Positions 6,676 to 41,435 of a stretch of DNA of 64,000 nt are shown here, piece after piece. Location of the stretch: positions 1,620-65,619 of the forward strand of contig JAZDOB010000012.1 in NCBI GenBank assembly GCA_043799105.1, read 5' to 3'. The notes below the pieces were generated by a model. The model was not told the DNA's origin and did not search any database. It saw only the letters and a list, made by a program, of their open reading frames with translations. Position numbers and translations under genes: made by a program. This DNA is from Candidatus Zambryskiibacteriota bacterium. GTDB lineage: Bacteria > Patescibacteriota > Minisyncoccia > Phycocordibacterales > WO2-35-19. Numbering within the stretch: position 1 is the stretch's first letter; each line of letters begins with the position of its first letter.

Positions 6676-7653
6676 TTATAAAAATTTTCTCGCTTCTTTC
6701 TCTACCAAACCAATTCTTGGTGGTAGCCAAATAATACTTTTATCTTTTTTGAACCACGTCATCTGGCGTTTGGCGTATTGGTAAGTTTCAATTTGCATTC
6801 GTCTTATCATTTCCGGTTTTGATATTTTGTTTTGTAAGAATAGGGAAACAATCTTATATTCCAAACCGATTTCTGCCATCCTTTTCCAAGACAAGCCTTT
6901 TTTGTGCAAATTTTGAACTTCTTTCAGGAGTCCCATCTTAAACCACTTTTCTATTCTTTTATTTATTCTTGCTTTTAGTTTGTTTTCATCAAAAAAATAA
7001 CTCACCCCACCCTCTCTTACTACAAGAGAGGGTTTTCGGAGCCCCTTCCTTTTGTTGTAAGAGGAAGGGGTTGGGGATGGAGTTATCGGAGCGATTCCTA
7101 TCTTGCATACTTCATAATTCATACTTCTTGATTTAAATTTAGGTACCTTCCCGATGGCTTCGCATATCTCAATTGCCCTTATAAGCCGTCTCGGATTTTG
7201 TTTTTCAATCGTCTCTGCCCTCTCTGGATCTAGCTTTTTTAATATTTCGAAAAGTTCTCTCGTTGTTTTCTTTTCTAATTTCGCTCGCAGTTTGGGATTT
7301 GGTGGAACCTCGGGAATTTGCTTATCTCCCAAGAGTGCGTCAATGTAAAACCCCGTGCCCCCGCAGACAATCGGTAATTTTCCAGACTTAACAATTTCAG
7401 CGATCGCATAATTTGTTAAGTGCATAAAATCTGAGGCAGTAAATCTCTTCCGAGGGTCAGAAACATCAATCAAATGATGCTTAACTCCCTTCATTTCTTT
7501 TTTAGTAATTTTACCTGTGCCAATATCAAGTCCCTTATAAACTTGTCTTGAATCAGCCGAAATAATTTCCCCGTTATGTTTTTGAGCTAGCTTGACCGCC
7601 AGATCACTTTTACCGCTTGCGGTCGGTCCGAGGATTACAATTAGTTTTTGCAT
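6676..7653 (-). CDS. miaA: tRNA dimethylallyltransferase
   Basis: P-loop LGPTASGKSDLAV and SADSRQVYKGLDIGTGK. I moved the start to MQKLIVIL at 7653 because the track's N-terminal 23 aa overlap tRNA-Leu. Contains the in-frame repeat at 7001..7082. Confidence 0.9.
   Translation of the reverse strand: MQKLIVILGPTASGKSDLAVKLAQKHNGEIISADSRQVYKGLDIGTGKITKKEMKGVKHHLIDVSDPRKRFTASDFMHLTNYAIAEIVKSGKLPIVCGGTGFYIDALLGDKQIPEVPPNPKLRAKLEKKTTRELFEILKKLDPERAETIEKQNPRRLIRAIEICEAIGKVPKFKSRSMNYEVCKIGIAPITPSPTPSSYNKRKGLRKPSLVVREGGVSYFFDENKLKARINKRIEKWFKMGLLKEVQNLHKKGLSWKRMAEIGLEYKIVSLFLQNKISKPEMIRRMQIETYQYAKRQMTWFKKDKSIIWLPPRIGLVEKEARKFL
7001..7082. repeat. Family A palindromic element (two hairpins), in frame inside miaA
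   Basis: Outer arms ctcacccca / ttggggatggag. Inner hairpins ccctctctt..aagagaggg and ccccttcct..aggaagggg. Encodes PITPSPTPSSYNKRKGLRKPSLVVREGGVS. Confidence 0.75.
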
Positions 7654-7655
7654 TG

Positions 7656-7736
7656 TGCCGGAGGAGAGACTTGAACTCTCATGGGTTGCCCCACACGATT
7701 TTGAGTCGTGCATGTCTACCATTCCATCACTCCGGC
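7656..7736 (-). tRNA. trnL: tRNA-Leu (CAA)
   Basis: The reverse complement folds as GCCGGAG..D-arm..CACGA-CUCAAAA-UCGUG, a long variable arm UGGGGCAACCCAUG, and a T-arm AGAG-UUCAAGU-CUCU. It ends 2 nt before the miaA ATG. Confidence 0.9.
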
Positions 7737-7819
7737 TTCGATTAAAATATACCCTAAATATCCACCAAAATCAAAAGTTTTAGCTTTTATTTTTGGTCGT
7801 TGTGATGTAAAATACCACC

Positions 7820-8791
7820 ATGTCTAACACTTCAAATTTTTATCAAAACTCAATATTTTGGGTGGAGGTGGATAAAATAAAGCCAAACCCCTTTCAGCCA
7901 AGACGTGAATTTGACGAGGATTCTATGAAAGCTCTAGCAGACTCCATAAAGCAATATGGGGTTCTTCAAGCGCTTGTGGTCACTCGAAAGGAAATCATTA
8001 AAGACGACGGTCTGGCGGTGGAGTACGAACTGATTGCCGGTGAACGCCGCTTAAGAGCTTCCAAAATGGCAGGCCTTTCGCAAGTGCCGGTCATCATAAG
8101 GATGGGCGAAGGAGAGGAGACCAAAGACGACTTGATGAAATTAGAGTTGGCAATTATTGAAAATGTCCAAAGAGAAGATTTGAATCCGGTAGAAAGAGCT
8201 CGAGCTTTCAAAAAGTTGGCTGACCAGTTTGGTTTCAAGCATCATCAGATAGCTCAAAAAATAGGCAAGAGCAGAGTATATGTCACCAATTCTATGCGTA
8301 TTTTGGATTTACCGGAAGAGATGCTCACGGCTCTTTCGGAAGGAAAAATAAATGAAGGGCACACAAGACCTCTCCTCATGCTTATTGACAGGCCGGAAGA
8401 ACAGAAAGTTCTTTTTCAGGATATTATGTTGCGCAAAATGAACGTGCGCGATGCTGAGCTCGCGGCGCGCAAGATCGCGATTGAAAGAGTGAGGAAATTT
8501 AATGCTTCGATTGACCCGGAGATTTGTGCTTTGGAAGAAAAGTTTGCGGCAAGTCTTGGCACTCGGGTGAGAATTGAGAAAAAAGAAAATGGCGGCAAGC
8601 TCATGATTGAATTTTTTAGTAACGATGATTTGGAGGATATTTTGAAGATGCTGAATCAAAATCAAGAGGCGATTGATGACAGAACTCCGGAGGAAATAAA
8701 AAAAGCGGAGGATACTCCGATTCCCACCGATGCTGAAGCTATAGCAGGCAAGGAAGAAGATTTATATTCAATCAAAAATTTTTCAATATAA
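7820..8791 (+). CDS. parB: ParB/Spo0J chromosome partitioning protein
   Basis: IKPNPFQPRREFD, GVLQALVV and GERRLRASKMAGL form the ParB N-terminal box plus HTH. No parA in the window. Confidence 0.9.
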   Translation: MSNTSNFYQNSIFWVEVDKIKPNPFQPRREFDEDSMKALADSIKQYGVLQALVVTRKEIIKDDGLAVEYELIAGERRLRASKMAGLSQVPVIIRMGEGEETKDDLMKLELAIIENVQREDLNPVERARAFKKLADQFGFKHHQIAQKIGKSRVYVTNSMRILDLPEEMLTALSEGKINEGHTRPLLMLIDRPEEQKVLFQDIMLRKMNVRDAELAARKIAIERVRKFNASIDPEICALEEKFAASLGTRVRIEKKENGGKLMIEFFSNDDLEDILKMLNQNQEAIDDRTPEEIKKAEDTPIPTDAEAIAGKEEDLYSIKNFSI

Positions 8792-8801
8792 AGAAGTTAT
8801 C

Positions 8802-10193: not shown

Positions 10194-12511
10194 TTTCTTC
10201 TTCCCATTTTCTTCGGTTCTTTGAAAATTTCCAGAGCTCGTTCTAGAGTAATGTTATGCACGTCATCTTTTTTGAGAGAACGGAAATCTTTTTGGTGTAC
10301 GACATAAGGGCCGAATCTTCCTATATTTGCTGATATCATCTCTCCGCTTTCCGGGTGTTTCCCGAGTTCTCTAGGCAAGCTCAAATATTTAAGCGCCTCC
10401 TCCAGTGTCACAGATTTTGGATCTTTGTCTTTTGGTATGCTTGACCGCCTGGGTTTTTTATTTTTTTCGTCTTTCACGCCAAGCTGTACGTACGGCCCAA
10501 ATCTGCCGTCCATTATAAAGACGGGGAGGCCGGTCGCTTCGTCATTGCCTATCGCTTCGGCCTCTTTGATTTCACTACCGTCAAAATTTCTCATGCCTTT
10601 GCATTTGGGGAACTTTTCACAGCTCAAAAACTTTCCTCCCTTGCCGAGCTTGATTATCATATCAGCTCCGCAAATTGGACATTTGAATTTGGGATTGGCA
10701 TCTCCTAGATTGGTCAGTTTGGCTGTTTTCTCTTTTTCTTTTATTTCTTTGGAGAAAGGTTTATAAAATTCCCGCAAAGTCGGTTCGTATTCTCTTTCGC
10801 CGTCGGCAATTTGGTCCAGCTCGTTTTCCATTTCAGCGGTGAAGGTGTCGCTTATATATTTTTCAAAATTATTTTCCAAAAAAGTGGAGACGACATCACC
10901 AGTATCGGTGGGTTTGAGTGCTCTCCCGTCTTTTTCGACATAACCCCTTTCTATTATGGTACCGATAATTGAAGCGTAAGTAGAAGGCCTGCCAATGCCT
11001 CTTTTTTCCAGCTCTTTAATTAAACCAGCTTCACTGTATCTGCCTGGTGGCTGTGTCTGTTTTTCCTCGTTATTTAGATTAAGTAAAGAAAGTGGATCTT
11101 CGGCTTTGACCTTAGGAAGCAAGACGTCTTCTCCTTTTGCTTCCGGATCAGCCAAAAGCCACCCGCTTTTTACGACTCTTGAGCCGTTTGCGACAAAGTT
11201 TGGAAGCCCGGGAAATGTTGCTCCCTCATCGCGCTTCGCTGATTTTCTTTCAGAAAATATCGCTTCGGTATCAACATTTCCCGGGCTTTGGATATTGGTG
11301 ACGATTTTTGTCCTCATCATCTCAGCATCTTTCATTTGGCTGGCTACAGCTCTCTGCCAAATCAAACGATATAATCTTTTTTGGTCTTCAGTGTGTCCGA
11401 CGTTTTCTTTGTCAAAATGAGTTGGGCGAATAGCCTCGTGAGCCTCCTGTGCGTTTTTTGATTTAGTTTTGTAAGTGCGAAATTGGTGATTTTCAGCTCC
11501 AAATTTATTTGCCACTACCCCTTTTATTTGTCCGAGCGCTACTCCTGCCATATTTAAACTGTCAGTGCGCATATAAGTGATATGTCCGGCTTCATAAAGT
11601 TTTTGGGCCGTCATCATCGTCCGTTTAGGAGAAAACCCCAGTCTTGTTGAAGCTGCTTGTTGAAGAGTGGAGGTGGTGAATGGGGCGTAGGGTGCTCTTT
11701 TTGCACTTGTTTCCGTCACATCTTTTACAAACCACTTTCCGTTTTTTGCCGCCTCGTAAATTTCATCGGCTTCTTTTTTTGTTTTTGGCTCTTTCTCGCA
11801 AAAAGCAATGAAAGACGCTCCAGAAAAAGTTTCTCCCTCAGCGCGCTTCGCTGATTTTCTTTCAGAAAATATCGCTTCGGGAGAAACTTTTTCTTTTGTT
11901 AATTCTGCGCTGATTACATAAAAAGTTTCCGGCTTAAAAGCGCGGATTTCTCTTTCTTTCTCCATTAAAATACGCAGAGCGGGGGATTGTACTCTGCCTG
12001 CCGAAAGTCCGTACCTCACTTTTTTCCAAATCAGTCCCGACAAATCATAACCCACCAGTCTGTCCAAAACCCTCCTGGCTTCTTGCGCCTTCCTCAAATT
12101 TTGGTCAATGCTTCGCGGGTGCAGGAGTGCCTCTTCTATCGCTTCTTTTGTAATCTCATGATAAGTGACTCTTTTTACTTTGCCCGCCGAAGCTTTAGCG
12201 GAGGAGGGTTTGTCTTCTCTTATTATTTCGGCCAAATGCCAAGCGATAGCTTCACCTTCTCGGTCGGGGTCTGTCGCCAATATTATTTCGTCCGCTTTTT
12301 CCGCCAGTTTTTTTATTTCCGCCACCACTCTCTCTTTTCCTTTTGAAATTTCATAATGAGGAATAAAACCACCTTCTATGTCTATGGCTTTTTTGTTTGA
12401 TTTTGGCAAATCGCGCACGTGTCCGACAGACGCGACCACTTCGTAATCACTCCCAATATATTTGCCAATCGTCTTTGCTTTGGCGGGGGATTCTACAATT
12501 AATAATTTCAT
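10178..12511 (-). CDS. topA: DNA topoisomerase I
   Basis: Toprim MKLLIVESPAKAKTIGKY, active-site region GHITYMRTDS, and the C-terminal zinc ribbon CPICG..CEKFPKC. Carries three in-frame repeat insertions. Confidence 0.95.
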   Translation of the reverse strand: MKLLIVESPAKAKTIGKYIGSDYEVVASVGHVRDLPKSNKKAIDIEGGFIPHYEISKGKERVVAEIKKLAEKADEIILATDPDREGEAIAWHLAEIIREDKPSSAKASAGKVKRVTYHEITKEAIEEALLHPRSIDQNLRKAQEARRVLDRLVGYDLSGLIWKKVRYGLSAGRVQSPALRILMEKEREIRAFKPETFYVISAELTKEKVSPEAIFSERKSAKRAEGETFSGASFIAFCEKEPKTKKEADEIYEAAKNGKWFVKDVTETSAKRAPYAPFTTSTLQQAASTRLGFSPKRTMMTAQKLYEAGHITYMRTDSLNMAGVALGQIKGVVANKFGAENHQFRTYKTKSKNAQEAHEAIRPTHFDKENVGHTEDQKRLYRLIWQRAVASQMKDAEMMRTKIVTNIQSPGNVDTEAIFSERKSAKRDEGATFPGLPNFVANGSRVVKSGWLLADPEAKGEDVLLPKVKAEDPLSLLNLNNEEKQTQPPGRYSEAGLIKELEKRGIGRPSTYASIIGTIIERGYVEKDGRALKPTDTGDVVSTFLENNFEKYISDTFTAEMENELDQIADGEREYEPTLREFYKPFSKEIKEKEKTAKLTNLGDANPKFKCPICGADMIIKLGKGGKFLSCEKFPKCKGMRNFDGSEIKEAEAIGNDEATGLPVFIMDGRFGPYVQLGVKDEKNKKPRRSSIPKDKDPKSVTLEEALKYLSLPRELGKHPESGEMISANIGRFGPYVVHQKDFRSLKKDDVHNITLERALEIFKEPKKMGRRKWKKT
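11221..11268. repeat. 48-nt direct repeat copy 1 inside topA
   Basis: ctccctcatcgcgcttcgctgattttctttcagaaaatatcgcttcgg. Encodes EAIFSERKSAKRDEGATFPG on the minus strand. Confidence 0.9.
11833..11880. repeat. 48-nt direct repeat copy 2 inside topA
   Basis: Identical to copy 1 except for one base (ctccctcaGcgcg..). Encodes EAIFSERKSAKRAEGETFSG. Confidence 0.9.
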
Positions 12512-13140: not shown

Positions 13141-13143
13141 AAG

Positions 13144-19742: not shown

Positions 19743-19845
19743 CCCGTTAGAAGTCACGGAAATCAAAAGCGGGATTGTTTATAAGTTATCTAATGTGAGT
19801 AAGAAATTGCAAACTAGGGTAATGAGATTTCCTACTTCTAACGGG
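19743..19845 (+). promoter_or_regulatory. Leader inverted repeat cccgttagaagt ... acttctaacggg ending at the dus ATG
   Basis: 12-nt perfect arms at 19743..19754 and 19834..19845. An inner alternative pair aatcccg/cgggatt is present. Same motif as 47478..47538. Confidence 0.6.
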
Positions 19846-21048
19846 ATGAATTTTTGGGAAAAGATGAAACAACCCCTCGACTCCGCTCGGGGTAAACCGA
19901 TACTTTGTTTGGCGCCGATGGCCGATGTTACCGACGCGGCTTTCAGATTTATTATCGCTAAAGTGTCAAAAGAAAAGCCAGAGGCGGACTTTCTGGCCCC
20001 ATCTTCAAAGTCCGCCTTTGGCTTTTCTGACACTTATGTTACCTACACGGAATTTGTTTCAGCTGATGGATTGGTTTTAGCACCGGAAAAAGGCAGGAAA
20101 AAACTTTTAAAAGATTTGGAATATGACGAAATTGAGAGGCCAATAGTGGCGCAGTTTTTTACAAATAAACCGGAAATGATGGAAAAAGCAGCGGCTTTGG
20201 CAGTAGAACTAGGCTTTGACGGAGTAGATATAAATATGGGCTGTCCCGACAAGAGCATTGAAAAACAGGGTGCAGGCGCTACTCTTATGAAAAATCTGCC
20301 CCTAGCTCGCGAGCTTATCAAAGCCGCAAAGCTGGGGGCATCCCGCGGAGCTTTAGCGAAGTGGAGCAGTATAAGCAAAGCCATTCCGGTCTCTGTCAAA
20401 ACTCGGCTTGGTTATAACAAGGACGAACTTGAAACTTGGTTGCCGGAATTGCTAGCTGAAAATCCGGCAGCCATTATCATTCACGCTCGTACCCGCAAGG
20501 AAATGTCCAAGGTGCCAGCCAGATGGGAGAGGATAAAGAGAGCAGTTGAGATAAGAGACGAGATTCAGACCTCACCCCTTACCCCTCTCCTAGCCTTAGG
20601 AGAGGGGAACCATCGTTCATATCCCGATAATTCTGATTCCTCTCTTTTTCCCTCCCCTGATCAAGGGGAGGGCCACACGAAGTGGGGGGTGGGGTTCAGA
20701 ACTTTAATCATAGGCAACGGGGATGTTTTCAACGTTGAGGACGCAAGGAGAAAGTGCGAAGAAAGCGGAGCCGATGGAGCAATGCTTGGACGAGCGATTT
20801 TTGGCAACCCGTGGCTTTTTGCTGATTATGAACCGACTGCGGAGGAAAGATTAAGGGTTTTGATAGAACACACTAAATTATTTGAAGAAAAATTTGCTGT
20901 AATAAAAAATTTTGCTGTTATGAAAAAACATTTTAAGGAATATCTAAAAGATCCAGAGCTAAGAGATTTGCGCTATAAACTTATGAGAACCAAAAGTGCA
21001 AAAGAAGCGGAAGAAACGATTAAAAACTATTTTCAAGCTTATTCTTAA
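19846..21048 (+). CDS. dus: tRNA-dihydrouridine synthase
   Basis: LCLAPMADVTDAAFR, DGVDINMGCP and VSVKTRLG. I moved the start to MNFWEK because the track start lies inside the leader hairpin. Two in-frame repeat insertions. Confidence 0.85.
   Translation: MNFWEKMKQPLDSARGKPILCLAPMADVTDAAFRFIIAKVSKEKPEADFLAPSSKSAFGFSDTYVTYTEFVSADGLVLAPEKGRKKLLKDLEYDEIERPIVAQFFTNKPEMMEKAAALAVELGFDGVDINMGCPDKSIEKQGAGATLMKNLPLARELIKAAKLGASRGALAKWSSISKAIPVSVKTRLGYNKDELETWLPELLAENPAAIIIHARTRKEMSKVPARWERIKRAVEIRDEIQTSPLTPLLALGEGNHRSYPDNSDSSLFPSPDQGEGHTKWGVGFRTLIIGNGDVFNVEDARRKCEESGADGAMLGRAIFGNPWLFADYEPTAEERLRVLIEHTKLFEEKFAVIKNFAVMKKHFKEYLKDPELRDLRYKLMRTKSAKEAEETIKNYFQAYS
20569..20696. repeat. Family A palindromic element (two hairpins), in frame inside dus
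   Basis: Outer arms cctcacccc/ggggtgggg. Hairpins cccctctcc..ggagagggg and ccctcccct..aggggaggg. Encodes TSPLTPLLALGEGNHRSYPDNSDSSLFPSPDQGEGHTKWGVGF. Confidence 0.8.
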
Positions 21049-21580
21049 ACCATTCGAAACAGAGCAAAAGTTTATGTAATTTTGTGCCGATAAATAGCCA
21101 GATTAAACCAATCGCGTATCCAGCCAGCACATCCGAAAGATAGTGTACTCCCAGATATAGACGGCTTACTCCCACTAAGATAATCAGGGCGAAAAGAAAA
21201 ACCATAAAAGGTTTTTTGAGATAATGCCTGTCATGCTTCCAAATTATGTACAGAAAAAAACCGTACAAAGCCATAACCATAGTGGCACGACCGCTGGGGA
21301 AAGAGGATCCCGTCTCCAAATAAACGGCTTCGACAATAGGTCTGGCTCTATAAAAAACATGTTTGATTATGTAAGCCGTTGCGGCGCTGCCGCCAACCGT
21401 TACCAATAAAGGAAAAATTCTCGCAAGATGTTTGTGGAAATAAAAAGAAATCGCTGAAATAAAGGTTAATCCTCCTACCAACATGTAACTGCCGGAATAT
21501 GTAATCACCATCATAAAAAATGTAAGCCACTCCGCCCTGCTATTTACGAAAAAATTCAAGACGGTTTGATCTAAGGTCAT
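21020..21580 (-). CDS. PAP2-family phosphatase (undecaprenyl-diphosphatase-like)
   Basis: PAP2 motifs KHVFYRARP, PSGRAT and SRLYLGVHYLSDV. Multi-TM protein. Confidence 0.8.
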   Translation of the reverse strand: MTLDQTVLNFFVNSRAEWLTFFMMVITYSGSYMLVGGLTFISAISFYFHKHLARIFPLLVTVGGSAATAYIIKHVFYRARPIVEAVYLETGSSFPSGRATMVMALYGFFLYIIWKHDRHYLKKPFMVFLFALIILVGVSRLYLGVHYLSDVLAGYAIGLIWLFIGTKLHKLLLCFEWFKNKLENSF

Positions 21581-21605
21581 GGGAATAATTATATCATACC
21601 TTAAT

Positions 21606-21726
21606 AACCCACCCCTTTCCCCTCCCTTACCTTAAGGGAGGAGTATCTTACATTTAGTACTTACCATTTGACTCGGGTTGTAGTTACCCTCTCCTTAAAG
21701 TAAGGAGAGGGATAGGGAGAGGTTAG
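21606..21726. repeat. Family A palindromic element, intergenic
   Basis: Hairpins cctccctta-cc-ttaagggagg and ccctctcctta-aag-taaggagaggg. Structurally parallel to 32109..32231. Confidence 0.8.
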
Positions 21727-21748
21727 AGTATGCTAGTATAATAAAATT

Positions 21749-22480
21749 ATGGACGGCATAATGCGCTGTAGCAGATATTCTTTTGGGCCAAACCGCCTGC
21801 ATTATTGCGGGCCGGATGCCAACAAAGAATTGCACGATTTGATTGAAAGTGGAGAGAGTGATATTGGTTTATCTGTTTTGTTAAAACAATTCAAAACTCT
21901 TTTCCCTTATCTGCGATACATAGCCAAAGCAAATAATATTTCTGACCCTTTTGACGCGCGGGTGGTTGAAGCTTATTGGCTTGGCAATAGACTTTTGGAA
22001 AACATAGAAAGAAATACTCTATATAGTTTTTTGGTTGACGATCTAAAAGTTAAAGATAAACTGAAGAGCAAAGAGTTTTCTTGGCTGGAGGAGAAAATAA
22101 AGCAAGGAGCGGTGCCACATCATTCTTTTCATATATTAAATGTGTGGCTACAAGATGGTCACGGTGACGGTCTGGAAGCTCTGACGAGAATGGATGAATG
22201 TAGAATTTCCAGCGGGATAGTCACGGCCGTGAAAGGCCCTGAGATAATAGTTTCAACCGAGCCCCTCATATACACGGCTGGTAAATTTGCTCTCGGTGAG
22301 ACGGCCCAGAGAGCCCTAACGAGGCAACTAGAGGCCGAATACGATATAGAGCAGATAAAACCAGGCCAAATTGTCTCAATCCACTGGAGTGTGCCGTGCG
22401 AAGTCATCACTCAAAAACAGGCCGAAACTTTACGCAAATACACCCTAAAAAACATCGCTTTTGCCAATTTAACGATTTAA
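21749..22480 (+). CDS. conserved hypothetical protein with C-terminal HypC/HupF-like domain (inferred)
   Basis: The C-terminus ECRISSGIVTAV...IKPGQIVSIHWSVPCEVITQKQAETL parallels HypC (MCIGVPGQI...GQWVLVHVGFAMSVI). The roughly 150-aa N-terminal domain is unassigned. Confidence 0.45.
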   Translation: MDGIMRCSRYSFGPNRLHYCGPDANKELHDLIESGESDIGLSVLLKQFKTLFPYLRYIAKANNISDPFDARVVEAYWLGNRLLENIERNTLYSFLVDDLKVKDKLKSKEFSWLEEKIKQGAVPHHSFHILNVWLQDGHGDGLEALTRMDECRISSGIVTAVKGPEIIVSTEPLIYTAGKFALGETAQRALTRQLEAEYDIEQIKPGQIVSIHWSVPCEVITQKQAETLRKYTLKNIAFANLTI

Positions 22481-31812: not shown

Positions 31813-31857
31813 AACCTCACCCCTTGCCCCTCTCCTAAATGCAGGAGAGGGGTTTGG
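31813..31857. repeat. Family A element, single-hairpin copy, intergenic
   Basis: aacctcacccc ttg cccctctcc taaatgca ggagagggg tttgg. Confidence 0.75.
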
Positions 31858-32108: not shown

Positions 32109-32231
32109 TCTAACCTTCTCCCTTCCTCTCCCTTACCTTAAGGGAGAGGTGACTGCATTCTGGAGTTCAACTGTTTAATAAATGTGTTGCGTGGTTCCCT
32201 CCTTAAAGTAAGGAGGGTTAGGGAGGTTAGA
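32109..32231. repeat. Family A palindromic element (two hairpins), intergenic
   Basis: Outer arms tctaaccttctccc / gggaggttaga. Hairpins ctcccttaccttaagggag and ccctccttaaagtaaggaggg. Confidence 0.85.
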
Positions 32232-32257
32232 AATCCTTATTTTTAAGTGTGTGATTT

Positions 32258-32917
32258 TCATTTCCCAAAATATTTTTCTTTATAAAATCTAATCAACTCT
32301 TCTACTTTAGGCAAACACTGCGGATAACCGATGCCGACTTTGGTGCGTTTTTGGACGGCGGCGAGAGTGGTGGCGCCTTCCAAGACGGCTTCTTCAATAT
32401 CGGCTTCTGTTGTGTTTGTGTTGGGATCCAAAATTTGAGCGCCGTCTACAACTATACGGCTGAATTGTTTTGTTTTTTTGAACCAGTCATTGAGGGCGGC
32501 TCGCAAAGCTTTGTCTCCCAAAACCGAGCAGTGGATTTTGCGATCAGGAAGTCCACCCAATCTTTTTATAATATCCTGCGGTTTTATCTGCAAGGCTTTG
32601 TCTATTTTCATACCGCCTTTTTCGGTGACCATAACGGAAAGCATAGAAGTAGAGGCGATAGCCGAAGCGCAACCAAATGTGCGCCATTTGAGTTCTTTTA
32701 TCTTGTCATTTTTTTTGTCTATTTTGAGCCACACCCTCATAACATCTCCGCAAGCGGGGGAACCGACAACTCCTTCACCGTCATATTTTGCTTTCCTCGG
32801 ATCTTCCAAAAGCAAATTTTTTGGTTTGAAAAAATGCTCACGCACTTGTTTTGTGTAAGCCCAAGAATCGCCGGTGTATTTATTAACGATGTCTGGTTTT
32901 TTATTTTGTTTTTTCAT
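32258..32917 (-). CDS. nifU: NifU/IscU-type Fe-S scaffold with BFD-like [2Fe-2S] domain
   Basis: GSPACGDVMRVWL, FGCASAIASTS and KIHCSVLG are the three scaffold Cys. A C-terminal BFD-like segment is present. Confidence 0.85.
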   Translation of the reverse strand: MKKQNKKPDIVNKYTGDSWAYTKQVREHFFKPKNLLLEDPRKAKYDGEGVVGSPACGDVMRVWLKIDKKNDKIKELKWRTFGCASAIASTSMLSVMVTEKGGMKIDKALQIKPQDIIKRLGGLPDRKIHCSVLGDKALRAALNDWFKKTKQFSRIVVDGAQILDPNTNTTEADIEEAVLEGATTLAAVQKRTKVGIGYPQCLPKVEELIRFYKEKYFGK

Positions 32918-34314
32918 TTTTTTGCTTGTCTCGCCGTAGCTTTTAGCGAAGGCGGATTATTTTTTCTTAAAAAGTGTAGCGTTTGTCCACCGACGAAGGC
33001 TCGCGGATCTGAAATTTTCTTTCTCTGGTTTAGACTGACATCGAGAGGCGAAATGTTTCTTAATATTTGGACGACTTTTGGTAAATGTTTAAGAACATAT
33101 TTTATATCTTGAATCGTGTTTTCTCTGCCAAGAGTGAAGCGAATACTGCCGTGAATATGTTCGTATGGACGACCGAGAGCCGTGAGGATATATGATGGCT
33201 CTAAACTTTGTGAATTGCAGGCGGAGCCGGTGGAGACCATTATACCAAGTTCGTCGAGATAAAGAAGCATCGCTTCGCCTTCAACATCTAAAATTGATAC
33301 GTTCAAAAAGCCGGGCAGGCGTTTATCGGGATGGCCGTTCAAGACGATTTTGGGTATGGATTTGAAAATTCCTTTTTCAAGAGTGTCGCGCATTTTTTTA
33401 ATCCGTGCCGATTCTTTTTTGCTTTCTTTACGGATGAGTTCTAGAGCTTTGGCGAAACCGACGATGCCGGGGACGTTTTCGGTACCGCTTCGCAGGTTGC
33501 CCTGTTGACCACCGCCAAAAATAATGGGGGAGATTTTTGTCCCTCTTTTTACATAAAGAGCGCCAACACCTTTTGGTCCGTAAATTTTGTGGGACGAAAT
33601 GGTCATCATATCCACACCAAGCTTGTTCATATCAATATCCATATATCCGGCGACTTGGCTGGCATCAGTATGGAAGTAGGGGACCTCACCCCAACCCCTC
33701 TCCTTGGCAAGGAGAGGGGCAAGGGGAGAGGACTTCTTAAATTCCTTGATTATTTTTGAAATTTCAGAAATTGGCTGGATAGTGCCGGTTTCGCTGTCGG
33801 CGTAAGTTATGGAAACTAGAATTGTTTTTTCGTTCAATTCTTTTTTGAATTCGTCCAAATCGATTAATCCATTTTTGCGGACTGGTAATTTTACAATTTC
33901 AAAACCCCGCCCGACCGAGTCATTCGGGCAGGCTTCTTTTTCCAAAACATCACAAACGGCCAAGATGCCCTTGTGCTCTATTTGTGACACGATTATTTTG
34001 GAAGCCAAAGTCGGACTTTGAACTGCCCCGGTCCCAAAAGTCCGACTTTGGCTTCCCCGGGCAACACCAAAAATGGCTAAATTGTCAGCTTCTGTTGCTG
34101 AACCGGTATAAAATATTTCATCGGGCCGGCAATTTAGAATTCCAGCTATTGTCTGGGAGGATTTGTCTATAGCATCTTTGGCTCTTCTGCTTAAACTATA
34201 CAAATTTGACGGGTTACCAAACTCTTTTTTGAAATACGGCAACATAACGGAAAAAACTCTCGGGTCAAGAGCTGTTGTGCCAGCGTGGTCAAGATAAATT
34301 CGTCTTTTGGACAT
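32914..34314 (-). CDS. nifS: cysteine desulfurase (NifS/IscS) with three in-frame repeat insertions
   Basis: IYLDHAGTT, SQIEHKG, SSHKIYGPKG (PLP Lys) and SGSACNS (active Cys). Confidence 0.9.
   Translation of the reverse strand: MSKRRIYLDHAGTTALDPRVFSVMLPYFKKEFGNPSNLYSLSRRAKDAIDKSSQTIAGILNCRPDEIFYTGSATEADNLAIFGVARGSQSRTFGTGAVQSPTLASKIIVSQIEHKGILAVCDVLEKEACPNDSVGRGFEIVKLPVRKNGLIDLDEFKKELNEKTILVSITYADSETGTIQPISEISKIIKEFKKSSPLAPLLAKERGWGEVPYFHTDASQVAGYMDIDMNKLGVDMMTISSHKIYGPKGVGALYVKRGTKISPIIFGGGQQGNLRSGTENVPGIVGFAKALELIRKESKKESARIKKMRDTLEKGIFKSIPKIVLNGHPDKRLPGFLNVSILDVEGEAMLLYLDELGIMVSTGSACNSQSLEPSYILTALGRPYEHIHGSIRFTLGRENTIQDIKYVLKHLPKVVQILRNISPLDVSLNQRKKISDPRAFVGGQTLHFLRKNNPPSLKATARQAKK
33684..33731. 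repeat. Family A element, single hairpin, 48 nt in frame inside nifS
   Basis: cctcacccc aa cccctctcc ttggcaa ggagagggg caa ggggagagg. Encodes SSPLAPLLAKERGWGEV on the minus strand. Confidence 0.8.
34000..34056. repeat. 57-nt perfect palindrome (20-bp arms) in frame inside nifS
   Basis: ggaagccaaagtcggacttt-gaactgccccggtccca-aaagtccgactttggcttcc. At 19 codons it encodes GSQSRTFGTGAVQSPTLAS. Confidence 0.9.
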
Positions 34315-34476: not shown

Positions 34477-36636
34477 ATGAGAATCGCAATTGCGATGCTT
34501 ATTGCTTTTGTGCTTTTTCCGGTCTTTGCCGAAGCGAGCATACATTTGTCTCCCTGCGTTCTCCACAACTACAAAGTAGTGGATGGGGATACGTTGTGGG
34601 ACATTGCGGGACGTGAGTTGGGTAATCCCAATTCTTACCCCGAGATTGCAAAGGCAAGCAATATCACCGATCCTGACCTGATTTATGTCGGTCAGACGAT
34701 TACCATCCCATGCTTTATCTTGCCAGCTTTGAAAGACAAGTTGGCGGAAGTAATTCCACCCGAAATCAAGTCGCTCCAGATTGAATCGCTTCCGGTTGAA
34801 ATGAATCCGGAACCATCGCCAGTTGAAACTCTGCAAATTGAGTTTCTGGCCATTGATATTCCATCATCTCAATATTCCAATGGGAATGTTTGGGATTTGT
34901 CAGCGCGAGATTCATTAGTTGAGTCGAAAGTTGAGTCGAATTCAGAAACCACCATTCCCATTGCTCCTATAAAACGGAGTGCCGATGTTCTAAACCAAAA
35001 GAAAGGAAGTGTCATGAACATTATGCGAGTACCATTTAAGGCCTTTATATGGCCGGTCAAGAATTACAGAAAGGCACTCGCATACGCGAGTGTCATCGTC
35101 AGCTTTTTGCCCATACCGCAGGCCAAAGTGGTTGCAGTCGGGGCGTCTATCGTTCTCGCGGCCACATCCTCGTCGGCGGCAGGACGGGAATTCATTCTTC
35201 AGTCTTCGGTTTCGGAAACCAAGACGACGACCATCAGCCGTACGGAAATTGAACAAGCGGGGAAAACTCCATACCTGCGATACACTTTGCCGGAGGGGGA
35301 GTTAGACTTCGTTTCCAATTCCATATTCCAACAGCCGTTGTTCTCTGAGCAAAAAGCAAACATTGAAAAGATGCCGAGAGATCTGGCATCGAGCCTTGGT
35401 CTTGCTGATGCCTATGTGTGGAACGAAATCCCCGGTAAATCAGCGGTGAAAGTTCGTCTCTCGGACAAAGCCGTAGTGATTTTTACACAAGATCAGCGTG
35501 GCGCTATGGTCCCGCTATATTTGGCAGATTGTCAATATGAAGGAAAACCATGGGCCAATCGGCTTAAGCTGGTGGCAACACCGCCTCCTCCGCAACAGCC
35601 TCAGCAGATGCAGAGTAACGCTCAGGCATCCGCGCAACAGCAAGTGATTGTGCCACCGGCGCCAATCACTAATAATATGAACATTCCGCCGTTTCCGGCG
35701 ACGATCAACTTGAATCTCAATGGTTTGCCACAACAGCCGGTAATACCGACTGAAACAACGCAGCATATCATTTATGAGACGAAGGAGACTTTTGCCGACA
35801 AAGTGAAAAAAATCGGCACCGGAGTTGGTGTCGGTCTCCTCGGATCTGCTGCGCAGACGGCGGCCATAAGATTCCCAAACGCCATGAGAGATACGGCGCG
35901 CATTAATGCTGATGGCATGGTGGAAGTGGCGAATATAAATGCAGCTACAGCGCAACAAGTTGCCACGACCCAAGCAGTTTCTGCTCAACAGGTTGCTAGC
36001 ACAGTTGCCCAGGGTTTGGTTGATGCGGCCAAGAACCGCGTGCCGGATCGGGTTGACATAAACAACACGGGAGTGAACAATCCGGTAAATACAGTGAGCC
36101 CCACTATCAATCCCAATATTAGTCCGACCATAAGTCCGATTAATACGGTGAGTCCTACCATCAGTCCGACCAATACCAACACAGTCAGTCCTTCTATCGT
36201 CGCTCAGGGTGGACAGGGCGGGCAAGGAGGCCAAGGTGGACAGGGTGGAGAGACCGGCCCCGTTAATGTCACTGCAAATGGTGGCTCAGTTAATAACTCT
36301 GGCAACTCTTCCTCATCCTCGTCATCTAACTCCAAGGCTGAAGGAGGAAACTCAAACGCCTTTGCAAATTCCAACTCAAATTCGTCTTCCTCTGCGAAGA
36401 ACGAAACAAATGTTGACGTCAACAACGCCAACATTAACGTCAACAAAAATGACAACACCAACAATAATTCCAATTCCGTAAAAAACGAGAACAAGCCTCC
36501 AAGTCCTCCACCAGACAAGAAGGATGACCATGGTGGGGACAAGGATAAAAAAGATGACAACAAAGGCGGAGACAAGGATAAAGATAAGGACAAGGAATGT
36601 CCTCCCACTGTCCCGCCACCAATGAAGAAGAAGTAG
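34477..36636 (+). CDS. secreted LysM-domain protein with long low-complexity C-terminal region
   Basis: Signal-like MRIAIAMLIAFVLFPVFAEA. LysM segment YKVVDGDTLWDIAG..LIYVGQTITIP. Also contains P/Q-rich, (V/I)SPTI(S/N)P, GGQ x5, S/N-rich and D/K-rich tracts. Confidence 0.75.
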   Translation: MRIAIAMLIAFVLFPVFAEASIHLSPCVLHNYKVVDGDTLWDIAGRELGNPNSYPEIAKASNITDPDLIYVGQTITIPCFILPALKDKLAEVIPPEIKSLQIESLPVEMNPEPSPVETLQIEFLAIDIPSSQYSNGNVWDLSARDSLVESKVESNSETTIPIAPIKRSADVLNQKKGSVMNIMRVPFKAFIWPVKNYRKALAYASVIVSFLPIPQAKVVAVGASIVLAATSSSAAGREFILQSSVSETKTTTISRTEIEQAGKTPYLRYTLPEGELDFVSNSIFQQPLFSEQKANIEKMPRDLASSLGLADAYVWNEIPGKSAVKVRLSDKAVVIFTQDQRGAMVPLYLADCQYEGKPWANRLKLVATPPPPQQPQQMQSNAQASAQQQVIVPPAPITNNMNIPPFPATINLNLNGLPQQPVIPTETTQHIIYETKETFADKVKKIGTGVGVGLLGSAAQTAAIRFPNAMRDTARINADGMVEVANINAATAQQVATTQAVSAQQVASTVAQGLVDAAKNRVPDRVDINNTGVNNPVNTVSPTINPNISPTISPINTVSPTISPTNTNTVSPSIVAQGGQGGQGGQGGQGGETGPVNVTANGGSVNNSGNSSSSSSSNSKAEGGNSNAFANSNSNSSSSAKNETNVDVNNANINVNKNDNTNNNSNSVKNENKPPSPPPDKKDDHGGDKDKKDDNKGGDKDKDKDKECPPTVPPPMKKK

Positions 36637-36659
36637 CTTCTTCTTTCAACAGCTCTTTC

Positions 36660-36699
36660 GGCCCCGCATCGCGCATAGCGTGGTGCGGGGCCATTTTTT
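36660..36699 (+). terminator. Rho-independent terminator
   Basis: Stem ggccccgca/tgcggggcc followed by atttttta. Confidence 0.8.
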
Positions 36700-36723
36700 A
36701 TACAGACGTTTTCAAAAATAGAT

Positions 36724-36888
36724 TTATCCCAAAAATCCGAGTGCTTTGTAGACCAAAAATGCCGGCCAGACTATGGCCTTGAGAAGTCCGAGTATTCCAA
36801 CCCAAAAACTGTCTGCGTGCTGGATATAAAATATAACCGCGCCGACGAATCCCAAACCATATATAGCTCCTGTGGTGCCTTTACACAT
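36724..36888 (-). CDS. small membrane protein (54 aa)
   Basis: Below the track cutoff. My translation is MCKGTTGAIYGLGFVGAVIFYIQHADSFWVGILGLLKAIVWPAFLVYKALGFLG, with two hydrophobic helices. Confidence 0.45.
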   Translation of the reverse strand: MCKGTTGAIYGLGFVGAVIFYIQHADSFWVGILGLLKAIVWPAFLVYKALGFLG

Positions 36889-36941
36889 ATATTTAAATTA
36901 AATTATAAGCTCACATATATTATCGCTACCATTTCAAAATA

Positions 36942-36969
36942 TTGCAACAAGCCAAATTTTTGCTACAAT
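36942..36969 (+). promoter_or_regulatory. sigma70-like promoter for tRNA-Asn (TTGCAA-16-TGcTACAAT)
   Basis: The -35 box is at 36942..36947 and the extended -10 at 36961..36969, about 30 nt upstream of the tRNA 5' end. Confidence 0.55.
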
Positions 36970-36999
36970 GCTAATGTTCTTTAGACAAAAGAATAATAT

Positions 37000-37347
37000 T
37001 CCGGAGTAGCTCAGCGGTAGAGCGGCCGCCTGTATCGGTTAATGCAGCTTCCCAAAGAAATTTGGGATGAAAAACGAGGTGAATTCGGGGGAACCCAAAC
37101 TTTAAAAAGTGGGCAATCCCGAGCCAAGTCCAGCACCACTTTTGATTTTTAAAATTAGAAGTTAAAAGTGGTGCTGGGAAGGTGTAGAGACTATCCTTAA
37201 CGGAGTAGGACGTGATTGCGAAGCAATTTTACGTTCGAAGCCCCTCGCCCCTAAATCGAAAGACATGGGGATGATATAGTCCATGCTTCTAGTAATAGGA
37301 GATTAAATGTAAGCGGTTGGTCGTAGGTTCGATCCCTACCTCCGGAG
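37000..37347 (+). tRNA. trnN: tRNA-Asn (GUU) interrupted by a group I intron
   Basis: Exons 37000..37033 and 37310..37347 join to UCCGGAGUAGCUCAGCGGUAGAGCGGCCGCCUGU|UAAGCGGUUGGUCGUAGGUUCGAUCCCUACCUCCGGAG. This is a 72-nt cloverleaf with anticodon loop CUGUUAA. Confidence 0.85.
37034..37309 (+). ncRNA. group I intron (IC3-like), 276 nt, no ORF
   Basis: P1 pairs exon CUGU plus intron AU with AUGCAG (37042..37047), with U-G at the splice site. The intron ends in G. The core strings GUGAAUUCGGGGGAACCCAAAC, CCCGAGCCAAGUCC and GGGAAGGUGUAGAGACUAUCC match the Azoarcus and Anabaena tRNA introns as I recall them. Confidence 0.8.
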
Positions 37348-37377
37348 CTTAGTGATGATTTTAAGATAAAATCTTAG

Positions 37378-37407
37378 GCCGTCAGCAATGACGGCTTTTG
37401 ATTTTTT
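37378..37407 (+). terminator. Rho-independent terminator after tRNA-Asn
   Basis: Stem gccgtca/tgacggc followed by ttttgatttttt. Confidence 0.75.
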
Positions 37408-37534
37408 GACTGAAAAAATTTTGAGTTGAGGGAGAAATTCCAACCTGCGGAGCTGACTTGACATAAGTATTCTATTATGCTATCTTGTAAATAGTAGTTT
37501 TTTGTTCAACTTCTAAAAATAGGAGGAAAATCGA

Positions 37535-37936: not shown

Positions 37937-37957
37937 TTGAGCAACACAAAATTAAAA

Positions 37958-38526: not shown

Positions 38527-38653
38527 GTAAAACGGGTTCTAAATTTATCTGACCACAGATCTAAAATCTCACTAAACTGAAGCTCTTGTTTAATCTTGGT
38601 CCAGTTTAAAGTTCTAAACTTATGTACAATAGGGAGCCAACATTTTTAGTAGT

Positions 38654-38998: not shown

Positions 38999-39095
38999 CT
39001 GGCCATCATCAAAGAAATTCCGGAAGACCGTGTATGTGACTGCTTTGCCAAATCCGAGCGCGCCGTGATTTCATAAACTATGATAGTATTGTCAT

Positions 39096-39983
39096 ATGAA
39101 AGAAAAAAACCATAGAAACGAAAAACGAAATATTATTATCGTGGCTATAATTGCGGCCTTGAGTATAGGTGGCGGGGGTTATCTTTATTACAAAACAGCA
39201 AAAAACATAATTCAAAATAAGGAAGATCTGGAAAGTACAAAAATAGAACTTACTAATACCAAATTGGCGTTGACTCAATCGGAAGAAAAAGTAAAAGATT
39301 TAAGCAATCGTTTGGGAACCGAGGTATACAAGAACTCTCTCTTTAGCGGACAAATAAATGAAATAATCGGTACAGTTGGCAAGCTGGATAAATTATCCAA
39401 GACCGACAAGGAACTTTTGCAGAAATATTCAAAAATATATTTTTTGAACGAAAATTATGTGCCGGAATCGCTCACTGTGATTCCTGCAGAGTTTGTTTAT
39501 GAAAAAGACAAAGAGTTGCAGATCCACACCAAAGTTTTACCGTTTCTTGAGGATCTTCTCAAAGCCGCAAGAAACGCCGGAATGGATTTAAAAATAATCT
39601 CGGCTTACCGTTCGTTTGGAGAACAGAGTGTCTTGAAGGGCGCTTATACGGTAAATTATGGTAGTGATGCCAATACGTTTTCGGCTGACCAGGGTTATTC
39701 GGAACATCAATTAGGCACGACAATTGATTTTACCACTGCTTCTGTCGGGGCGACTTTCTCCGGATTTTCCAAGACGAAAGAATACGAATGGTTGCTCCAG
39801 AATGCTTACAAATACGGATTTACAATTTCCTATCCCAAAGAAAATACATATTACCAGTTTGAACCGTGGCATTGGCGTTTCGTGGGCAGAAGCCTGGCTG
39901 ACCAGCTTCACACAGAAGGACAATATTTTTACGATTTGGATCAGAGGACGATAGACACATACCTGATTAATATTTTTGATTAG
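39096..39983 (+). CDS. D-alanyl-D-alanine carboxypeptidase, VanY-like (peptidase M15B)
   Basis: N-terminal TM segment. SAYRSFGEQ, SEHQLGTTIDF and EPWHWRFVG. Confidence 0.8.
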   Translation: MKEKNHRNEKRNIIIVAIIAALSIGGGGYLYYKTAKNIIQNKEDLESTKIELTNTKLALTQSEEKVKDLSNRLGTEVYKNSLFSGQINEIIGTVGKLDKLSKTDKELLQKYSKIYFLNENYVPESLTVIPAEFVYEKDKELQIHTKVLPFLEDLLKAARNAGMDLKIISAYRSFGEQSVLKGAYTVNYGSDANTFSADQGYSEHQLGTTIDFTTASVGATFSGFSKTKEYEWLLQNAYKYGFTISYPKENTYYQFEPWHWRFVGRSLADQLHTEGQYFYDLDQRTIDTYLINIFD

Positions 39984-40016
39984 TCTGTTTATTATTAACT
40001 CATAAATCTTAAAGAT

Positions 40017-40415
40017 ATGAGGACAAACATAAAGGCAACCGGTATCACACTTACTGCGTCTATAACCGATTATATTGAAAAGAAAATAAATATGCTGGAA
40101 AAGTTTTTCCGGGGGGAAGAAGTTTTGGTAAACGTGGAAGTGGGCAGGACGACAAGACATCATAAATCGGGAGATATTTTTAGAGCTGAGATCCGCATTA
40201 CCTCCGGCGGGGAGGAATATTATTCAGTGGTGGAAACGGAGGACCTTTATGCGGCTATTGATGAAGTCAAAGATGAAATAGTACACGAACTGACATCAAA
40301 AAGAAAAAAAGCTTTTCATCTTTTCAGACGCGGAGGAGCTCAGATAAAAAACTTATTGAAAGGAATAGCGAATGTGGGGGATAGGGGATGGAAAAGATTT
40401 AAGAACAGGAAATAA
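40017..40415 (+). CDS. hpf: ribosome hibernation promoting factor / RaiA family
   Basis: MRTNIKATGITLTASITDYIEKKI..VNVEVGR..FRAEIRI. Confidence 0.8.
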   Translation: MRTNIKATGITLTASITDYIEKKINMLEKFFRGEEVLVNVEVGRTTRHHKSGDIFRAEIRITSGGEEYYSVVETEDLYAAIDEVKDEIVHELTSKRKKAFHLFRRGGAQIKNLLKGIANVGDRGWKRFKNRK

Positions 40416-40418
40416 ATC

Positions 40419-41435
40419 TTATTTTTGTCCTCTCAGAAAATCGTCAAAAGACATTGCTCTTTTGCCCTCGGGAATTACTCTTAATATTTTTAGCTCATTA
40501 TTTTCTGTGGTGGCGTCTGTGATTATGATGCGTTTTTGTTCTGAACCGCCTCCGCTTTGCTTCGGCGTGTCGAGGAAAAAATAAGCGGTTGGCCATTCTT
40601 CAAATGCTTTTATTTTGAGAAGATTTTGGCGAGCATTTTTTCCTAAATCATTCAAATCTATTTGAAGTTCTCCATCTTCTTTTTCAACTTTTTTACAATA
40701 TGTCGCTTTGCTCTCGTCTTGCATTATGGGGTCAATCGCGCCCTGCATCCACTCGGGCAGAATATGGGCAAAAAGCTGTGCACCCTCAATTGCCAAAAAT
40801 TTCTCTAATTCCTTCCTGCTCATAACCTCATCCCCGGCCCTTCCCCTAGGCGCAGGGGAAGGGAGAGGGACATTAGAATTGTCACTGTGTGAAGTATGTT
40901 TCCCCTCTCCTGCATCTACTCGCCCGGCGTAGCCTTGGCGAAGCGGGGGGAGAGGGGTAAGGGGTGAGGTTTGGACAACAACCGGCCCCGTGTCCATAGT
41001 TTCCTCGATTTGCATAATGGTCACGCCCACTTCTTTTTCATCGTTTAAAATCTGGCTCTGAATGGGGGAGGCCCCGCGGTATTTGGGCAGGAGGGAAGGA
41101 TGAATATTTAAAGTTTTATGTTTGGGGATTTCGAAAATTTCTTTTGGAATTATTTTGCCGTAAGAAGCAACCAAAAAAAGGTCGTAGCTTGCAGCTTGTA
41201 GCTTGGAAATCAGATCCACATTATTTTTTAAAGATATTGGATCAAGAATCTCAATTTTATTTTCTTGTGCCCAGATTTTCACCGGAGTAGGCGTCAGTAC
41301 CAACTTTCGGCCCTTAGGTTTGTCGAGAGTGGTTACAATAAGGGAAGGTAAAATATTATGGATTTTTAATTCATCCAAAACATAAACGCTAAATTCCGAA
41401 CTTCCAAAAAATACCCAGTTTGCTTTATTTGTCAT
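40419..41435 (-). CDS. fmt: methionyl-tRNA formyltransferase with in-frame repeat insertion
   Basis: VFFGSSEFSV, LVASYGKIIP, LNIHPSLLPKYRGASPIQ and METGPV-like MDTGPVV. Confidence 0.9.
   Translation of the reverse strand: MTNKANWVFFGSSEFSVYVLDELKIHNILPSLIVTTLDKPKGRKLVLTPTPVKIWAQENKIEILDPISLKNNVDLISKLQAASYDLFLVASYGKIIPKEIFEIPKHKTLNIHPSLLPKYRGASPIQSQILNDEKEVGVTIMQIEETMDTGPVVVQTSPLTPLPPLRQGYAGRVDAGEGKHTSHSDNSNVPLPSPAPRGRAGDEVMSRKELEKFLAIEGAQLFAHILPEWMQGAIDPIMQDESKATYCKKVEKEDGELQIDLNDLGKNARQNLLKIKAFEEWPTAYFFLDTPKQSGGGSEQKRIIITDATTENNELKILRVIPEGKRAMSFDDFLRGQK
40824..40971. repeat. Family A palindromic element (two hairpins, nested family B core), in frame inside fmt
   Basis: Outer arms aacctcatcccc / ggggtgaggtt. 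Encodes SPLTPLPPLRQGYAGRVDAGEGKHTSHSDNSNVPLPSPAPRGRAGDEV. Confidence 0.8.

Follow-up and report, generated by a model that had tools for sequence, protein, structure and literature searches.

The stretch of DNA analysed here (the window, 64 kb) makes up nearly all of a 66.6-kb contig from a metagenome-assembled genome of Candidatus Zambryskibacteria (Patescibacteria, Candidate Phyla Radiation, CPR). Its GC content is 41%, and a Pfam search of its open reading frames (ORFs) found housekeeping and fermentative genes. The fmt and cysteine desulfurase proteins match NCBI entries under this name at 100% identity. The window carries one family of composite palindromes, present at 10 loci of 41-150 nt and comprising 17 half-units. 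Four of the copies lie in frame inside housekeeping genes (miaA, dus, a nifS-type gene and fmt), and others bracket the gene of a DUF559 nuclease, the sole nuclease- or transposase-like gene found in the window. An earlier reading made from the letters alone (below, the sequence-only reading) had counted at least nine such palindromes in what it took for a CPR-like genome. Both statements were borne out: the eight copies that it listed were all recovered at their coordinates, with arms and hairpins as described, and two single half-units (61032-61075 and 61655-61698) were added to them. The copies of the family and the nuclease gene are as follows:

6998-7085, no strand: composite palindrome with two hairpins, in frame in miaA (fold z-score -5.6)
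20569-20697, no strand: composite palindrome in frame in dus
21605-21728, no strand: intergenic composite palindrome, with a PAP2 gene (21020-21580, minus strand) on one side and a DUF6390 gene (21749-22480, plus strand) on the other
31813-31853, plus strand: single half-unit (outer arm and one hairpin), intergenic, 3' of a ferredoxin gene
32109-32232, no strand: intergenic composite palindrome upstream of a NifU_N gene (32258-32917, minus strand)
33684-33735, no strand: short form with one 11-bp hairpin between two arms, inserted in frame into the cysteine desulfurase gene
40824-40973, no strand: composite palindrome in frame in fmt
61032-61075, plus strand: half-unit with arm TCTAACTCCCC and hairpin CCCCGCTT..AAGCGGGG, left bracket of the DUF559 unit
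61135-61248, no strand: composite palindrome whose right half provides the 3' end of the DUF559 gene (11 codons and the stop codon)
61655-61698, minus strand: half-unit with hairpin TCCCCCTT..AAGGGGGA and arm GGGGGTTA, right bracket of the same unit, located 50 nt upstream of the start codon of DUF559
61216-61605, minus strand: DUF559 gene (Vsr-like PD-(D/E)XK endonuclease), 129 aa (Pfam PF04480, E = 3e-32; NCBIfam DUF559)

Architecture of the palindrome family

The half-unit is composed of a C-rich outer arm, a spacer of 2-4 nt and a hairpin of 7-11 bp, in which the 5' arm is all pyrimidine and the 3' arm all purine. The outer arm measures about 10-12 nt and reads (T)AACCTCACCCC or TCTAACYYCCC, with the general consensus CCTCACCCC or TAACYYCCC. 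Half-units occur either singly (31813, 61032 and 61655) or as inverted pairs around a spacer. A full element consists of a left half-unit, a variable centre of 38-47 nt and a mirrored right half-unit, and the copy in the nifS-type gene is a short form, with one hairpin between two arms. The outer arms pair in every full copy, i.e. terminal inverted repeats are present. The stem sequences vary among copies (CCCTCTCT, CCCCTTCC, CCCCTCTCC, CCCTCCCCT, CCTCCCTT, TCCCCCTT and others), yet every 3' stem arm exactly complements its 5' arm, so that it is the pairing and not the sequence that is conserved.

In a MAFFT alignment the 17 half-units did not fall into structural register, and a direct hairpin scan (perfect stem of at least 7, loop of at most 14) with shuffled controls was used instead. 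It found 13 distinct perfect pyrimidine-arm hairpins in the window, whereas 100 dinucleotide shuffles gave 0.19 on average and never more than 2. With up to one mismatch allowed, CCCCTCTCC occurred 28 times (8.9 expected) and CCTCACCCC 17 times (6.5 expected). The single-stranded DNA folds of six copies share a common shape, an outer stem enclosing one or two hairpins, with z-scores from -4.6 to -5.6, and none of 200 shuffles was equally stable. No Rfam family matched the elements at the gathering threshold, and a literature search with the element sequence strings gave no match.

Matches to the arm TCTAACYYC at 35298 and 36325, in a LysM-protein gene, have no hairpin and were discarded as chance. 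An attC-like reading of TCTAAC...GTTAGA was also dropped: the arm consensus is CCTCACCCC and the copies are without a cassette arrangement.

Copies inside genes and their orthologues

The four genes named by the sequence-only reading as interrupted but unbroken are indeed intact, and their identities were confirmed, as the ORFs match their Pfam families over the full length: IPPT for miaA, Dus for dus, Aminotran_5 for the cysteine desulfurase and Formyl_trans_N/C for fmt. The host ORFs, the peptides encoded by the inserts and the extra residues relative to solved homologues are listed below:

6676-7722, minus strand: miaA, insert encoding ITPSPTPSSYNKRKGLRKPSLVVREGGVSY (about 27 extra residues relative to PDB 2qgn)
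19795-21048, plus strand: dus, insert encoding TSPLTPLLALGEGNHRSYPDNSDSSLFPSPDQGEGHTKWGVGF (about 49 extra residues relative to a solved homologue)
32914-34314, minus strand: iscS/nifS-type cysteine desulfurase, insert encoding KSSPLAPLLAKERGWGEV (about 13-18 extra residues relative to a solved homologue)
40419-41435, minus strand: fmt, insert encoding TSPLTPLPPLRQGYAGRVDAGEGKHTSHSDNSNVPLPSPAPRGRAGDEV (about 42 extra residues, query 157-213 against 156-171 of 4iqf)

The element-coded peptides start alike (TSPLTPLL, SSPLAPLL, TSPLTPLP and ITPSPTPS). The peptides VVQTSPLTPL (fmt) and KKSSPLAPLLAK (cysteine desulfurase) span an insert junction. All full-length intergenic copies (21605, 32109 and 61135) contain stop codons in all six frames, many of them provided by TTAA-containing loops, whereas copies within genes have no stop in the frame that is read. 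This difference is the signature of selection on translation.

The insert sites are short in solved homologues and variable in close orthologues, in agreement with the surface-loop positions that had been proposed for them. Mapping onto a predicted structure, suggested by the sequence-only reading, gave the same picture for the cysteine desulfurase. In its AlphaFold2 model (mean predicted local distance difference test, pLDDT, of 83) the insert of the main family (residues 196-212) is placed between the helix 182-195 and the strand 213-217, and two other inserts (91-103 and 128-137) are likewise situated between elements of the core; pLDDT is about 74, 50 and 65 at the three sites, in comparison with values above 90 in most of the core.

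A tRNA gene (7656-7736, minus strand) overlaps about 22 codons at the beginning of the miaA ORF as called mechanically; translation of miaA probably starts at the Met of MQKLIVILGPTASGKS.

The comparison of orthologues distinguishes insertions from ancestral loops. Among 120 Paceibacteria homologues of fmt the loop is usually short (QKKIGVENWPLGRKELEK), the commonest flanked segment being 16 residues long, and at least 8 extra residues are present in 46. Many of these inserts are mutually different and many resemble translations of the element (SPLTPLL, PSPDQGEG, GWGEV, as well as SPLTPLLDLGEGKH.., PSPDQGEGGRRPGGV, PNPSPSQGEGQGTEGTWGEV and FARRGVGGEV). The desulfurase loop follows the same pattern (at least 8 extra residues in 42 of 120 homologues); its main-family insert is missing from most orthologues and present in P0126. 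In the Dus protein of a Nomurabacteria relative (L067) the site occupied in the window is empty, and an element of its own (TSPPTPLLDKERGAKGEVR) follows GNPWLF, where the Dus of the window is empty.

A codon-level alignment with four related genomes revealed that the fmt insert is common, in frame, to at least four species and has been remodelled; some inserts are thus old. L002 carries the full two-hairpin element, L005 an insert like that of the window, and L003 the second hairpin only. In L004 only ACCTC and GGGTGGGGTT are left, i.e. two arm remnants, owing to an exact internal deletion of 99 nt relative to L002, at 90% protein identity. In a comparison of 13 syntenic genes across the window and as many as four related contigs, such palindromes account for several indel blocks of at least 5 residues.

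Copies at different loci are also related to each other. The dus element of the window is 89% identical to the L002 fmt element over its whole length, the centre included, and 83% identical to the fmt element of the window itself, and the common centre encodes G(K/N)H..S.DNS in both genes. This cross-locus identity shows descent from shared mobile copies and not evolution in place.

The sequence-only reading had named ancestral loops as the finding that would overturn mobile insertion, and distant as well as many close orthologues proved to be without the segments. The alignment with orthologues that it recommended thus confirmed the absence of the inserts from many of them; the unambiguous target-site duplications expected from the same comparison were not found. 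Possible flanking direct repeats accompany two of seven copies (TTCAG at dus and TTAT at 61135-61248), and the other five are without them.

The main family is accompanied by at least four further families of small palindromes, which lie in frame in topA, dus, nifS, fmt, a PriA-like gene and an M50 protease gene of the window. Their copies include:

19971-20028 (dus), 34000-34056 (desulfurase) and 43545-43599 (PriA-like): second family, AAGCCAAAGTCGGACTTT..AAAGTCCGACTTTGGCTT, loop of 14-17 nt, in frame
11204-11288 and 11822-11894, minus strand: two palindromes of 73-85 nt in the topoisomerase I core (topA)
40919-40948, 32925-32958, 20340-20365 and 40539-40568: third small family, around GTAGCYTTRGCGAAG
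40919-40948, minus strand: 30-nt palindrome of the GTAGCYTTRGCGAAG family nested in a hairpin loop of the fmt element, adding 10 codons

The desulfurase copy of the AAGCCAAAGTCGGACTTT/AAAGTCCGACTTTGGCTT family lengthens the protein by about 12 residues compared with PDB 9wep, and most orthologues are without it. Both topA palindromes are read in the same frame and encode (P/T)EAIFSERKSAKR(A/D)EG, at places where solved TopA structures vary. Copies of the GTAGCYTTRGCGAAG family also make up the C-terminal tail of the desulfurase and give Dus an additional loop. The nested 30-nt insert distinguishes the fmt element of the window from that of L005, with which it is otherwise collinear; the insert shows no clear target duplication.

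GCCCGAccgagtcatTCGGGC occurs both in the desulfurase gene and in an S30AE gene of L003. A mini-palindrome GCCCGA..TCGGGC lies in frame in the desulfurase gene (33915-33935, encoding ACPNDSVGR), and a related copy is found in the S30AE/HPF gene of a relative (L003, 11152-11178). The M50 protease gene has a palindromic insert of 24 residues (46506-46581 in the window; 4752-4820 in L004), whose stem differs between the window and L004 with the pairing retained. At the same site L003 has a remnant of a main-family arm (4032-4052; AGGGGTGAGGTT, encoding PARGEVS).

Other features of the window include an EPSP-synthase/MurA-type enzyme with a fused N-terminal HTH_3 (XRE-type) domain (819-2342, plus strand) and a full-length group I intron match (37044-37302, plus strand; Rfam RF00028, 62 bits). 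The intron sits in an ORF-free stretch at about 36640-37530; ARAGORN found no tRNA at its site.

The half-unit across phyla and the DUF559 gene

A search with one exact 18-base pattern, CCTCACCCC N(2-3) CCCCTCTCC, in one representative genome per species matched at least 120 stretches of bacterial genomes. The matches listed include Chloroflexota, Bacteroidota, Planctomycetota, Acidobacteriota, Pseudomonadota (with Xanthomonas and Pseudomonas among them), Cyanobacteria, Armatimonadota and the Nomurabacteria. At least 120 stretches of viral contigs were matched as well, versus 3 for a reversed-sequence control of equal composition. The half-unit is thus not specific to CPR bacteria or to the source genome. 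The pattern fixes the arm and the 5' half of the stem only, and in 138 of 149 and 160 of 169 of the matches listed (93-95%) the complementary 3' stem is found no more than 70 nt further on.

Complete two-hairpin elements with matching outer arms were seen in Hymenobacter, Dehalococcoidia, Dongia and Chloroflexales. Half-units also form tandem arrays, e.g. in a viral contig (L179, 1763-2858; period of 72-75 nt, at least 14 copies) and in a Polyangiales contig (L014, 1-140; period of 36 nt). The share of matches in ORFs of at least 150 aa tells nothing in GC-rich genomes, since long spurious ORFs abound there, and genic calls across phyla were confined to AT-rich cases and identified host proteins.

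The only coding unit that shares the ends of the element carries DUF559. In the window this unit extends from 61032 to 61698, the gene being bracketed by the half-units at 61032 and 61655. The protein matches a solved endonuclease-like structure (3hrl, E = 4e-17), and about 22,000 protein clusters (50% identity) match it at E <= 1e-3, 8,423 of them at E <= 1e-10. Its closest relatives come from Hainich groundwater metagenomes. All six strong DUF559 hits among the window and the loci retrieved with the DNA pattern (the window, L013, L031, L041, L042 and L120) are situated at most 153 nt from a half-unit and have half-units on both sides.

A reciprocal test started from the protein: 80 metagenome DUF559 loci were fetched by protein similarity alone, with an alignment of three sequences as the query. 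A pyrimidine-arm hairpin was present within 250 nt of the gene in 73 of the 80 loci, and on both sides in 47. Hairpin density was 5.0 per kb near DUF559 and 0.22 per kb elsewhere in the same contigs, a 23-fold enrichment, and arms of the expected kind adjoin the hairpins at these protein-derived loci.

The nuclease is also tied to the repeats by its own sequence. N- and C-terminal extensions of DUF559 proteins are often translations of the element (PPSPLLTQEGG.., PLSLRERVRVRA.. and TLTPALSLRERG). Moreover, whole DUF559 units flanked by element-coded peptides lie in frame inside leucyl-tRNA synthetase (LeuRS), HsdM, HsdR and type IIG enzymes, and one lies inside an EPSP-synthase-like fusion; no intron or intein was found at these in-frame units. 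The in-frame DUF559 inserts are:

L031, 5682-8000
L305, L309, L290 and L120
P0266 and P0343
LeuRS host: Cytophagales

DUF559 genes are reported to be enriched among predicted inversion targets (PMC9881135), which would be explained by the inverted repeats that flank the gene. The VSR/DUF559 clade contains a proven homing endonuclease, I-Bth0305I (PMC3424549). In a literature search of incomplete coverage, which leaves novelty unproven, no paper was found that joins DUF559 or Vsr-like nucleases with palindromic repeats, and none that holds both CPR and MITE/REP terms (miniature inverted-repeat transposable elements and repetitive extragenic palindromes, respectively).

Origin and spread of the repeats

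Among the known systems, the closest in behaviour are the Rickettsia palindromic elements (RPEs; Ogata et al. 2000, 2002, summarised in PMC10969869). As far as the account in PMC10969869 extends, RPEs are palindromes of about 100-150 bp with many in-frame insertions in unrelated housekeeping genes, a recurrent encoded peptide, fold-tolerant sites, no internal transposase and a reduced host genome, and the elements described here are alike in these respects: they are multi-copy palindromes inserted in frame at tolerant sites of unrelated genes. The proposal of RPE-like mobile insertion, made in the sequence-only reading, is upheld by the presence and absence of copies in orthologues, the similarity between loci, the reading frames and the structure. 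Measured against the same account, the present repeats differ in their host (Patescibacteria), in their C-rich arms and pyrimidine/purine hairpins, in their one-hairpin short forms and single half-units, and in their occurrence in many phyla and viral contigs. They also differ in the physical link to a DUF559 nuclease gene and in the several unrelated palindrome families found in the same genes. Because host and sequence differ, we do not claim membership of the RPE family, but only a similar behaviour.

The resemblance to REPs, to their inverted doublets (REPINs) and to the associated tyrosine transposases (RAYTs) (PMC3337134, PMC3733652) lies in short imperfect palindromes, either single or paired in inverted orientation around a spacer, in an associated gene flanked by inverted repeats, and in many non-coding copies beside few protein-coding ones. 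However, the arms are without the GTAG/CGTC tetranucleotide head, which is a defining feature of that class, no Y1 (HUH) transposase is present in the window, and the flanked gene is the PD-(D/E)XK Vsr-like nuclease DUF559. Furthermore, the repeats are not confined to extragenic sites and are spread across phyla and viral contigs.

Bacterial MITEs (ERIC, Coxiella QMITE1 and Anabaena MITEs; PMC10969869, PMC5896051) are likewise small and non-autonomous, bear terminal inverted repeats and are occasionally fused in frame with host genes. Unlike classical MITEs, the present repeats have no parent insertion sequence (IS) with a DDE transposase in the window and no consistent target-site duplication, and in-frame copies in core genes are far more frequent. 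Vsr/EDxHD homing endonucleases such as I-Bth0305I (PDB 3r3p; PMC3424549) belong to the same nuclease clade as DUF559 and, like the DUF559 units, are selfish genes that invade conserved host genes with host function kept. In contrast to them, the DUF559 unit lies outside any intron or intein, is translated within a host protein or stands alone, and is bracketed by hairpin repeats that also proliferate gene-less.

Based on these observations, we consider it probable that the palindromes are non-autonomous, REPIN/MITE-like hairpin repeats, inserted genome-wide and surviving in tolerant loops, with DUF559 as the probable partner. We are highly confident that the repeats are selfish, non-autonomous palindromes and that the copies in genes are those which survived selection for reading frame and loop position. 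That DUF559 is the trans-acting enzyme which moves the repeats is suggested by the association only, and we propose it tentatively, at slightly less than an even chance. We would wager a little less on the wider proposal that DUF559 might be the nuclease of an unrecognised, cross-phylum class of REPIN-like palindromes, whose gene and gene-less derivatives would be spreading in bacteria and phages and settling in frame in essential genes without an intron or intein.

According to this model, copies would insert, or be copied, genome-wide, and with tight gene packing many of them would hit genes. The survivors would be those with a multiple of three bases and no stop in the host frame, located in a tolerant surface loop, and they would be translated as Pro/Ser/Leu/Gly/Glu-rich linkers. 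Subsequent decay would proceed by point changes and palindrome-mediated internal deletions, and the same permissive loops would be struck repeatedly in related lineages. The DUF559 Vsr-like nuclease could nick or cleave extruded hairpins or arms and so start copying or a homing-like spread.

Several points weigh against this model. The polarity of the half-units around DUF559 is mixed, the nearest upstream half-unit being of the R-type in 29 loci and of the L-type in 11, and the order hairpin-arm-gene-arm-hairpin is commoner than arm-hairpin-gene-hairpin-arm. The elements therefore flank DUF559 more often than their arms enclose it, which fits a RAYT/REPIN-like associated gene and equally a gene that merely landed beside repeats. 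Only about 3% of the pattern matches listed adjoin a DUF559 gene. None of the three loci inspected for it (fmt, nifS and dus) offered a clean empty site together with an unambiguous target-site duplication. The abundance and taxonomic range given above come from the matches listed for a single exact pattern and are lower bounds only. Finally, it is from the intact frames, and from these only, that we infer the inserts to be translated and retained.

The mixed polarity, together with the distance of most copies from any DUF559 gene, would also suit an alternative in which the repeats are moved by another enzyme encoded outside the window (a RAYT-like HUH or DDE enzyme, or host replication and repair), with DUF559 as an independent selfish or defence gene that inserts beside the palindromes or is stabilised by them. 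The view is limited to 64 kb of the genome, and an rve integrase is encoded in a contig of a relative (L001). In addition, QMITE2/REP elements are known insertion targets of IS1111 (PMC5896051), so that repeats can attract other mobile genes. However, no transposase of any kind, Y1_Tnp included, is encoded among the ORFs of the 64-kb window, and no transposase family was seen adjoining its repeats. The arms are without the GTAG/CGTC tag typical of RAYT-dependent REPs. Hairpins lie within 250 nt of 73 of the 80 DUF559 genes from unrelated metagenomes, with the 23-fold local enrichment. We regard this alternative, the main one, as unlikely.

It is considerably less likely that the palindromes are functional for the host and selected as such, i.e. 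as mRNA stabilisers or terminators, recombination or replication signals, four-tract G-rich/C-rich motifs or peptide linkers. Such roles would agree with the retention of hairpin pairing while the stems vary, with the fmt insert kept in frame in at least four species, and with the four G-tracts which an arm and a stem are predicted to place on one strand. But many close orthologues have no copy or a different one, and copies decay by internal deletion. They also occupy unrelated genes and intergenic sites, with no consistent position relative to genes, and occur in viral contigs and tandem arrays.

That the segments represent low-complexity loops of ancestral origin, or are excised in the manner of introns or inteins before the protein matures, is hardly credible: the group I intron of the window (37044-37302) does mean that self-splicing RNA occurs in this genome, but distant and many close orthologues are without the segments, no Rfam family matches them at the gathering threshold, elements down to 52 nt are too short for an intron core, intein motifs are missing, and the frame is always kept in genic copies, free of the stops that full-length non-genic copies have in every frame.

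To our knowledge, selfish palindromes inserted in frame have been a curiosity, described mainly in Rickettsia, and no enzyme is known to mobilise them. The non-autonomous palindromes described here extend RPE-like behaviour, at high density, to an unrelated lineage with ultra-small genomes, and they link the repeat to a specific candidate enzyme, so that the mechanism can be tested. In practice, the inserts inflate and fragment alignments of CPR marker proteins, and annotation pipelines take element-coded peptides (SPLTPLL.., GEG.., GWGEV) for protein sequence. If the proposed partnership is true, it would give a role to DUF559, which is among the larger domains of unknown function, and account for the presence of DUF559 domains inside restriction-modification enzymes and aminoacyl-tRNA synthetases. 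Palindromes of this kind would then be a main source of protein-length variation in the streamlined genomes of CPR bacteria.

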